IMG/VR virus record: IMGVR_UViG_2718218309_000005
Coordinates: 1 to 37,363 of that record
Source: a virus
Lineage: Duplodnaviria > Heunggongvirae > Uroviricota > Caudoviricetes
Length of the DNA stretch: 37,363 nt
Direction: 5' to 3' (one strand)
The translations under genes and the position numbers were made by a program. The first letter of the stretch is position 1, and the number at the start of each line of letters is the position of its first letter. Shown one piece after another: positions 27,883 through 30,298 of this stretch. The notes below the pieces were generated by a model. It saw nothing but the letters and a program-made list of their open reading frames with translations. It did not search any database and was not told where the DNA came from.

Positions 27883-30298
27883 TTAATACAGGTTCCGCCA
27901 CTGATCATCTTCCTGCAAACGCTGGTTCCGATAGAAGATACGCAGGCCTGCTCCTGACGGAATACTGCCTCCGCGAAGGAGTAAATCGACCTCTTTCTCG
28001 CTGCCATCAAATCCTCTGGACTTCAGCTCATACACGAGCTGCAGTCGCTGATGGTCTGTAATTCGCTGTTTGTAGTCTTTACGCCGTTTCGGTTTCACCA
28101 GGCGTAACCTTGCTGCCAGTTCCCGGCGCTCTTTTTTGCTCATACTGTGCAGGTAATCGTGCAACTCCTTGTCATCCATGCTGGTAATGTCCGTTCTGGG
28201 GTCCCCATCAGCTGATTTATCTTTCTCCTGTTGGTTCAAATTTTCAGCAAGGGGACAGTTATTGCCACGAGTCCAAGGGGCGCAAGCGCCCTGGTCGGCT
28301 ACCGCCTCCTGAACGTCAACGGCCTTACGAACCATTTTCCACTTCACTGCATGAGTGCAGATCTTGCCCTCTGCAATGGGTGACCAGATGCCATAAATAC
28401 GAATGCCGTGATCGCCATAGGCGGTCGGCTCTTCGTTGATTTCATAAGCGGTTCTGATAAGGTGATATTTACGGGGAACCAGTACGCCGCCCTGCTTCAT
28501 GATGTAGGTGGCAAAACAACCAGCATCAGCAGCAGCCAGGATGGCATCAAGGCGCGGGTCATCCAGTATCAGCGCACCTGCTTTTTTGTCACCCTGTTGC
28601 CTTGCCGCCTGACCAGCCAGCAAGCGAAGTTCACGGTAAGCCTGACGTCCCGGAATACCAAAGAAGCGGAACTGCTGAACACGATGCAGAGACGCCCAGG
28701 CATTAACGTATTCGGCGTTATCACGCAGGGATTTACCCGTTTCCTTGCTGATCTCGCCAGCCAGACCACGCCCGTCAATGTTCTTACTGATGTATTTCGC
28801 GATGTAGCTTGTCGGTGTTCCTTTGCGCGGGTTAATCAGCTCAGACTTAAAGCGTGGCCCCGTGTTGTTGCCCAGCTCCTCGCGGTCTACACGGATGGCA
28901 AACTTACGCAGTAATGCAGTGATGGCGCGGCGGTCTTTTTTACGCATGAAGCACATGAGATGCCAGTGCACAGTACCGTCATGGTGCGGCTCAGCCACCC
29001 GCACGCCATACCAGCGCAACCCGGTTTTGTGCATTGCTTTACGAAATGCAGCAAACATGCCGACCAGATAATCGCTGCTTTGTCTTACCGTCGCATTTGT
29101 CCAGGTCGGGTTGGGTCTGCCGTTGTTGAGCGTGGAATGGAAACGTGACGGACAGGTGATAGTATAGAAAACGGCGCAGTCACCGCGCATTTCCGCGATT
29201 AAGCTCCAGACCTTTAACACAGGCCATCATCTCATTGCGGCGATGCGCAGGGTTGCTGCTGCTGGCGTTTACCACATCCTCCATGTCCAGCGTGTCGCCG
29301 TCTTCGTTCACCAGTTCATGAGAACGGAAAAACTCCAGCGACTTACGGCGCTGCTCACGTTTATGCATCACGGCTTCATAGCTGACATAGGGAGATGCTT
29401 TTTTGCTGACCAGGCAGACAGCACGCAACTGCTCTTCCCGCCATTCGCAACGCATCTTCCATAATTTCCGATACCACCAGTCGGCGCACAACATACGCGC
29501 CAGCGAACCCGGAATGAGTTCATAGGGTACGGGTTTACGGCGGTTTCTTTTCCGACGGAGTTGCTCAAACGCAGGTGGGATGACATCCAGACGCAGGGTT
29601 TCCGCCGCCACCTTTTCCCATGTCTTGCGGATTTCTTCTGGCTTAACGTCATCGGTGGCATACAAATCGCCACAAGCTGCATCAAGGCACATGCTCATAT
29701 GCGCAGCTACCAGGGTGGACAGGCGTTTCACCTGGTCCTGACTCATTTCAGGCAGGATCAGCAGGCCCTCCAGCCCTTGATGGCTTGCCATAAAACGGAA
29801 AGAAGCAGACAGCTGACTGTCACGTACACAATCCAGTCGCTCCAGACATGGCTTAATCGTCTCACGCAAATAGCGGGAATAAGCCTTTGGCCTGCCCAGG
29901 CTGCTGAAGTATTCGATACGTTGCATCAGCGGCTTGCTAATATGGGTGGGCTGGGCGCTGACGTCCGCCAGAATGACCATGTCCGGGTTAAAACGCTGCT
30001 GTTCATGCGCCAGCTTTGCCCGGCTAATGAGCTTATCCTGCTCCATTTCGCGCTGGACAGGATCACGAGATTCATTAAAGAAATAACGCTCCCAGACCTG
30101 CTCACTCAGTGCATCGCGGCGCAGCTGTTCCTGCTCATTATCGGCAGCGTACAGAGTGATCAGGTTTAAAAGTGCAGACTCCGGCGCAACTTCCGCCGGG
30201 TCCAGATAAGGGTTAATGGCCTTTTTCGGGCCGTTCCATGAAAATGCTGTAGCGGCCTCGTTAAAGCCGCTAGAGTTGCTCATATCGTCATGACTCAT
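27883..30298 (-). pseudogene. A: replication initiation protein gpA, interrupted by a +1 frameshift near 29200
   Basis: Two overlapping ORFs (29180-30298 then 27883-29220) together cover a P2 A-like protein; the downstream part carries the HUH-type motif HHDGTVHWH and the tyrosine pair YIAKYI. Confidence 0.6.

Follow-up and report, generated by a model that had tools for sequence, protein, structure and literature searches.

Does the gene for the replication endonuclease of a P2/186-type prophage in Escherichia coli carry a real break, or does it only appear broken in one sequence? The question is raised by a stretch of DNA of 37,363 nucleotides (nt), IMG/VR record IMGVR_UViG_2718218309_000005, which is referred to here, at its full length, as the window. 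The window is a segment of an E. coli chromosome; behind grxA, ybjM and ybjL it contains a complete P2/186-type prophage. The prophage spans the region from ogr (2856) to the stop codon of the integrase, which ends at the last base of the window, and is integrated between ybjL and rcdA. Its replication gene, gene A, is found as two overlapping open reading frames (ORFs). An earlier note on this DNA, made from the sequence letters and their translations, had proposed that gene A is split by a +1 frameshift, and had offered two causes: a prophage which is replication-defective, or a sequencing or assembly error. We analysed the locus against its relatives in genome, phage, metagenome and protein collections. 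The split is caused by the insertion of a single base into a gpA-type gene which is normal in other respects, and the inserted allele is private to the window sequence. The reading we prefer, with confidence only a little above even, is a very recent mutation of the null type.

A single inserted base divides gene A

In the window gene A has a length of 2416 nt, one more than the 2415 nt (804 codons) of intact relatives. The coordinates of its parts, and those of the neighbouring dam gene, are presented in Table 1. Its two ORFs overlap and are both located on the minus strand; the peptides and coordinates given in the earlier note are correct, and it was silent on the strand. ORF1 consists of the native residues 1-366 followed by an out-of-frame tail, NRGNAR. 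Its stop codon is the TGA at 29182..29180, both in the ORF listing and by direct reading of the sequence. The frame of ORF2 contains the native sequence from residue 366/367 to residue 804. This frame is closed by the TGA at 29229..29227, two codons ahead of the GTG of ORF2, as had been noted earlier. It also contains an in-frame ATG at 29190..29188, 8 nt before the stop of ORF1, from which a form of 435 amino acids (aa) would be produced.

Concerning the lesion itself, intact relatives read GAGCTTATCGCGG on the coding strand where the window reads GAGCTT-A-ATCGCGG. The extra A is one of the two T found at 29199/29200 on the plus strand; at this position all relatives have a single base, against TT (plus strand) or AA (coding strand) in the window. 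In the local alignment with three intact relatives only one column differs, and the 100 nt on the 5′ side are invariant. Translation from the normal start halts six codons past the insertion, resulting in the 372-aa protein. When the extra A is deleted in silico, the 804-aa ORF is restored; the suggestion of a single-base change whose removal gives one ORF of about 800 aa is therefore confirmed. Whatever the origin of the base, the annotation of A should show a single frameshifted gene of 804 codons, and not two genes. Phase variation and transcriptional slippage were also considered and were rejected, because the site is a step from one base to two and there is no repeat tract.

A terminator-like hairpin, GCGCGG-TGA-CTGCGC, with the premature stop codon as its loop, is present at 29174..29188 (minus strand), ahead of CGTTTTCTAT. 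In the relatives the hairpin sequence is ordinary coding sequence.

Table 1. Coordinates of gene A, its parts and the adjoining dam gene in the window
Feature	Position	Strand	Description	Basis
Gene A	27883..30298	-	P2 gpA / 186 A-type replication endonuclease	Annotation of relatives, P2/186 alignment, Pfam Phage_GPA
ORF1	29180..30298	-	372 aa; Phage_GPA profile positions 1-174; no catalytic motifs	
ORF2	27883..29220	-	445 aa from GTG 29220; Phage_GPA profile positions 174-321	
Lesion	29199..29200	-	1-nt insertion, codon 367 (ATC to AAT C)	Alignment and gap lists
Rolling-circle motif 1, FYTITCPS	29146..29169	-	Residues 377-384 of the intact protein; 10 codons downstream of the break	
HUH metal-binding motif	28960..28992	-	Residues 436-446	Alignment with P2 and 186
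Active-site motif YIAKYISKN	28780..28806	-	Two tyrosines, Y498 and Y502, which align with Y450 and Y454 of P2 A	
Ori-like segment GCGCCCCTTGGACTCGTGGCAATAACTGTCC	28253..28283	-	Inside ORF2; equivalent nick position near 28274	Similarity
dam (DNA adenine methylase)	30344..31162	-	272-aa allele; stop 45 nt before the ATG of A	
10-bp tandem duplication, GGTGGAATTT x2	30346..30365	-	Perfect; near the 3′ end of dam	Gap lists

The break lies inside a conserved block, upstream of the catalytic motifs

Both ORFs match the Phage_GPA profile (PF05840), for which the cut-off is 31.4 bits: ORF1 with 176.8 bits (E 7e-52) and ORF2 with 229 bits (E 1e-67). Since each half matches the family strongly, the split of gene A is not a chance pattern. 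These matches, together with an identity of ~30% to P2 A, bear out the P2 A-like identity which the gene had been given; the identity to 186 A is ~34%, both values being measured on a 99%-identical intact homologue (L001). An alignment with the A proteins of P2 and 186, which the earlier note had called for, places the break at profile position 174/321. This position is inside a contiguous block conserved among the window phage, P2 and 186 (..SNPAhRRxEMMxxhxGhE/hxxxxGxxxxFYThTxPS.., with the slash at the break) and not in a variable linker. No sequence relative of A is found in the PDB, and the conserved block across the break argues against a domain boundary at this point.

The three rolling-circle motifs (motif 1, HUH and Y-x3-Y) are all located in ORF2, downstream of the break, and none is found in ORF1. 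The tyrosine pair of P2 A with which the pair of the window aligns is said to have been identified as the active-site residues of P2 by Odegrip and Haggard-Ljungquist in 2001. By similarity, the ori-like segment corresponds to the nick sites annotated in P2 (29892) and 186 (28576), and it is identical in the window and its intact relatives; a putative origin nick site would thus be located inside the coding sequence of gene A itself. One uninterrupted ORF, in which the N-terminal region is continuous with the catalytic core, is a mark of this family, and in the window this ORF is split after codon 366. Judged by its sequence, gene A of the window appears to be a disrupted copy of a member of the P2 gpA-type HUH initiator family and not a functional gene.

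The inserted allele is found only in the window

A megablast search with the 2416-nt gene matched ~1220 E. coli genomes and 58 phage records at a coverage of at least 80%. Among the full-length matches listed, the aligned stretch is always 2415 nt long and is annotated as one 'replication endonuclease' gene. A 71-mer across the site was compared by BLAST with complete E. coli genomes (1159 matched), phage records (42) and plasmid records (8), and the insertion is in none of them. A sequence with the inserted allele would match at 100%; the best matches, among them all the E. coli and phage rows which were listed, have an identity of 98.6% (one gap). When GTDB representative genomes, IMG/VR and JGI metagenomes were scanned for an exact 26-mer, the inserted allele had no match either. 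The 372-, 445- and 435-aa products are absent from the gene-position index and from a collection of 15 billion proteins, in which the 445-aa product was searched with an M start. All 84 relatives which were fetched lack the insertion and align ungapped to the repaired window, and in all 79 relatives which span the whole dam-A region the ORFs of dam and A are intact. The exact intact 804-aa protein is recorded on 33 contigs, one of which is a 4.86-Mb chromosome. In addition, E. coli, Klebsiella and Salmonella phages do not differ over the 70 nt which surround the site.

This distribution bears on the explanation that the split gene still yields a working A protein, which we regard as very improbable. 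Two routes to such a protein can be described. In the first, a low-level +1 slip at CUU-A, with tRNA-Leu moving from CUU to UUA and GGAG located immediately 5′, would recreate the wild-type ..ELIAEM.. sequence. In the second, termination would be followed by reinitiation at the AUG at 29190, and a 435-aa C-terminal fragment with all the motifs might act alone or together with the product of ORF1. Several traits of the site are consistent with these routes: GGAG-CUU-AAU-C is read in the sequence and a +1 slip at CUU-A restores the native amino acids unchanged, the AUG at 29190..29188 is in the frame of ORF2 and overlaps the end of ORF1, and the three motifs and the ori-like site all belong to ORF2. 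A programmed +1 frameshift should, however, be conserved, and this one is present in no relative (0/1159 E. coli genomes, 0/42 phage records, 0/8 plasmid records and 0/84 fetched relatives). Nor is a shift-prone P site combined here with a slow codon in the A site: the codon after CUU is AAU, an ordinary sense codon which is neither a stop nor known to be rare, with nothing obvious to pause the ribosome, and the re-pairing from CUU to UUA exists in principle only. The GGAG directly 5′ of CUU is conserved coding sequence in all relatives and is not evidence of design. For the second route, direct reading shows no strong Shine-Dalgarno sequence before either the AUG at 29190 or the GTG at 29220, and a promoter scan found no promoter-like site upstream of ORF2. 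A break inside the contiguous Phage_GPA block, and not in a linker, also speaks against a protein working in two pieces. The insertion does not mark a conserved site of recoding.

Frameshifting which compensates for 'savior' indels has been described (PMC5009743). The insertion could be regarded as an indel of this type, with traces of A made via +1 slippage at GGAG-CUU-A and with the replication and killing which follow SOS induction strongly damped and not abolished; we give this proposal a slimmer chance still. If it were true, the insertion would be a one-step reversible attenuation from which the lysogen benefits, and the element would be potentially viable.

The rest of the prophage is intact

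A lookup of the upstream Dam protein led to the same prophage in L089 (an ENA metagenome), L091 (Logan, with 11 similar places) and L095. All three have the same cargo genes and integrase as the window and an A which is intact at 804 aa. The region 20343..37363 of the window aligns with L089 over 17,021 nt with 10 mismatches and one gap, which is the base at 29200. Over 23838..37363 (~13.5 kb) the sole single-nucleotide polymorphism (SNP) against L089 is at 28890, and the only SNPs against L091 are at 26630 and 32759, in both cases in addition to the inserted base; compared with L089 and L091 together, the window has no private SNP in this region. L091 is a copy of the same prophage, and its cargo and its 272-aa dam allele are those of the window. 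Its gene A (10865-13279 of L091; P0031, 804 aa, UniRef100 UPI000E1CDF96) is uninterrupted, has one base fewer at 29199/29200 and equals the A of the window once the extra A is removed. Four dam-A changes appeared to be private to the window in comparison with 84 more distant relatives; L089 and L091 carry them too, and they are uninformative on decay.

Nine of the 10 mismatches with L089 are packed within 112 nt (23726..23837) of the terminase ATPase gene, which looks like a short recombination patch. The terminase protein of the window is a very common allele, present in 35,569 index blocks, and its lookup for clone-mates was uninformative for this reason.

The integrity of the other genes was checked by translation, with gene coordinates taken from the annotation or the gene calls of EA7 and L089 and applied to the window. 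None of the 47 other prophage genes checked (among them regulators, lysis, head and tail genes, integrase and cargo) contains an internal stop, and the same holds for the three host genes. There is no gap against EA7 over 24.9 kb and only the one gap, at the inserted base, against L089 over 17 kb. All 185 homopolymer runs of at least 5 nt, 65 of which are at least 6 nt long, have the same length as in the relatives.

Immediately upstream of A, dam contains a 10-bp duplication, which shortens Dam from 285 to 272 aa and replaces the ATGA stop/start overlap of dam and A, found in relatives, by the gap of 45 nt. The 272-aa Dam still covers the whole methyltransferase profile. The duplication was considered as a second private lesion and evidence of decay, and was dropped. 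The zero matches obtained for it initially reflect the limits of the collections scanned: the exact 272-aa Dam is found on 49 contigs, in prophages with differing cargo, and an intact 804-aa A is next to it in every place shown (in L089-L096, dam at 10001-10819 is followed by the 804-aa A). The duplication is a tolerated, circulating allele which is unrelated to the lesion in A. Because the 272-aa allele always accompanies an intact A, the coupling of dam and A appears dispensable.

The same comparisons bear on a further explanation, in which the prophage is a long-standing domesticated or cryptic element that lost A long ago and is kept for its cargo or for its tail and late genes. The presence of candidate defence cargo (PDC-S33, of the RelA_SpoT type, and PDC-M11A/B) fits this explanation, as do the decayed P2-like prophages which occupy the same chromosomal site in other strains. 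An old pseudogene, however, would be common to descendants and would have further lesions; here the allele is found in no other genome, no other gene is damaged, and there is no private substitution in 13.5 kb relative to intact copies. In terms of a frameshift pseudogene, the ORF is disrupted relative to intact orthologues, and neither further lesions nor an excess of private substitutions is present. This explanation is close to refuted, and its probability is minute. The choice posed by the earlier note, defective or error, stands on both its sides; its term 'cryptic element' is too strong, because the prophage is almost identical to intact copies and any defect would be very recent.

Two possible causes: a very recent null mutation or a consensus error

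The best reading of the locus, at slightly better than an even chance, is a very recent null mutation, which would make the prophage replication-defective. The event would be very recent because the surrounding 13.5 kb contain no other private change. In P2, A acts in cis at an origin inside its own gene, and late gene expression depends on replication. The proposed mechanism begins with a private one-base insertion by which an A would have been duplicated in codon 367 of the 804 codons. The 372-aa product, the only one with a normal translation start, retains the N-terminal half of the Phage_GPA domain and lacks the whole catalytic core with the rolling-circle motifs; the motifs and the ori-like nick site are left in a downstream frame which has no convincing translation start of its own. 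If real, the insertion would be a null allele, with the HUH and tyrosine core, which rolling-circle initiation requires, out of frame. By analogy with P2 and 186, the nicking enzyme would not be made, rolling-circle replication would be unable to start at the origin inside A, and the induced prophage would fail to amplify and would yield few or no virions. On the same analogy, immunity, integration, the candidate defence cargo and the block of late genes would stay usable, the last for example by a P4-type satellite which brings its own late-gene activator. The delta protein of P4 directly activates P2 late genes (PMC9942202, PMC8628076).

A real mutation is consistent with the lack of any other indel relative to the nearest relatives, with the correct homopolymers and with a site which is not a homopolymer; the clean homopolymer record slightly favours a mutation over an error. 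It is also consistent with the natural loss of A in related prophages, as in L114, where A is truncated, and in the deletion derivatives L094 and L099. The ori-like site is intact. Other points weigh against this reading. An error would look exactly like this, an allele seen once on a background which is identical in all else, and mutation and error were weighed on the assembled sequence. The 372-aa product is found in no indexed assembly (NCBI, ENA, Logan), so that there is no second independent observation. The loss of replication and of phage yield would follow from the genetics of P2 and 186, and the cis action of A and the replication-dependent late expression are taken from the P2 literature.

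The explanation by an error in sequencing, assembly or consensus (base calling or polishing), in which the A of the strain is intact at 804 codons and the prophage is fully functional, is nearly as likely as a real mutation, although its probability is somewhat below even. That the inserted allele is seen in the window only, on a background nearly identical to intact prophages and without a private SNP over 13.5 kb, is what an error would produce. The sharing of the 70-nt stretch by E. coli, Klebsiella and Salmonella phages implies strong selection there, and the complete E. coli genomes of RefSeq do not include the window sequence. An error is, however, harder to reconcile with 37 kb free of other indels against the nearest relatives and with homopolymer runs of at least 5 nt which are all of correct length (185/185). 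Long-read and flow-based errors concentrate in homopolymers, and the site is not one; short-read assemblies rarely make single-base insertions.

If the null mutation is real, the P2/186-type prophage of this strain would have to be listed as replication-defective: an immune prophage which keeps its candidate defence cargo, is unable alone to amplify or to yield phage, and possibly serves a P4-type satellite. It would also be a clean example of the first step in prophage inactivation, a single lesion on a pristine genome. An error would instead mean an intact prophage, and 'defective' calls made from the window sequence would then be wrong. The locus is either a very recent knockout or a sequencing error, that is, an ordinary frameshift, real or apparent, in a phage gene which is well known. 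No feature of a new kind is involved, and the significance beyond annotation is slight.

Cargo genes and other features of the window

The prophage contains cargo genes in several slots. A 334-aa RelA_SpoT-domain protein (25952..26956, minus strand) is encoded between the portal and DinI-like genes, in a variable cargo slot, and has a match (E 2e-16) to PDC-S33, a candidate defence family of PADLOC. In other copies of this backbone the same slot contains a KAP NTPase, AIPR, SIR2, a reverse transcriptase or AAA ATPases. Three further cargo genes (33718..36232, plus strand) are located between CI and the integrase. The first encodes 354 aa and has no match to a family; the matches of the second (359 aa) and of the third, which encodes a protein of 123 aa with an ASCH domain, are to PDC-M11A (E 1e-133) and PDC-M11B (E 2e-49), respectively. 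The last two are a candidate two-gene defence system, as their family matches suggest. A 271-aa gene at 16305..17120 is found on the opposite strand (plus) between the tail genes V and S, in a cargo slot which varies among relatives, and its sole family match is a sub-threshold one to HNH_5.

Concerning regulation, the window has a single consensus LexA box (CTGTTTATATTTACAG), at 27773..27788, in the interval which separates the stop of A from the 62-aa gene and the DinI/Tum-like gene. Because this position is that of the SOS promoter p95 in phage 186, the prophage is probably SOS-inducible. At 10145..12256 a serine recombinase gene of the invertase type adjoins the C-terminal part of a tail-fibre gene and assembly genes in opposite orientation, which looks like an invertible host-range segment; the inverted repeats at this region are weak only (16-18 nt, 81-83% complementary).

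Comparison with known systems

Real decay is seen in other E. coli prophages of this family, at 17311..21411 of L114, 15897..19392 of L099 and 17653..19047 of L094. In L114 (GCA_964047695.1) A is called as only 695 aa, against 804, and is adjoined by an IS21-type insertion sequence with rve and IstB genes, while the late genes are kept. A disruption of A by this element is suggested by the gene table, and the cargo region of L114 also looks rearranged, whereas the window has a single-base insertion only. L099 and L094 are deletion derivatives in which head, lysis and tail genes are fused or removed.

Known programmed +1 sites include CUU-UGA-C in prfB of E. coli and CUU-AGG-C in Ty1 of yeast. 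The window has in common with them CUU in the P site and a base which allows +1 re-pairing, and it has a Shine-Dalgarno-like GGAG upstream. It differs in that its A site has neither a stop nor a codon known to be rare and in that the site is not conserved in homologues. The resemblance is a by-product of the position of the insertion.

Gene A of phage 186 (NP_052289, 694 aa) has ~34% identity to the A of the window type. The early layout of 186 is shared with the window: CI, an Apl-like gene, CII, Fil, DUF2732, TraR/DksA and A, with the LexA box and a DinI/Tum-like gene downstream. The gene upstream of A is orf84 in 186 and dam in the window. Translation of A in 186 is annotated as coupled to the upstream gene, whereas in the lineage of the window the 10-bp duplication places 45 nt between the stop of dam and the start of A.

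Gene A of P2 (NP_046795, 761 aa) belongs to the same Phage_GPA family and has the same three rolling-circle motifs, including YIAKYISKN with Y450/Y454. Its annotated nick site is within the gene itself, as the putative one of the window would be, and the core ..CAATAACTGT.. is shared with the window. The amino acid identity between the two is ~30%; the N-terminal region of the window protein is longer (804 vs 761 aa), and the gene upstream of A is orf83 in P2 and dam in the window. Replication-null mutants of A known from P2 are among the closest comparisons for the lesion described here, and by analogy with them the frameshift in the window, if real, would be expected to abolish replication.

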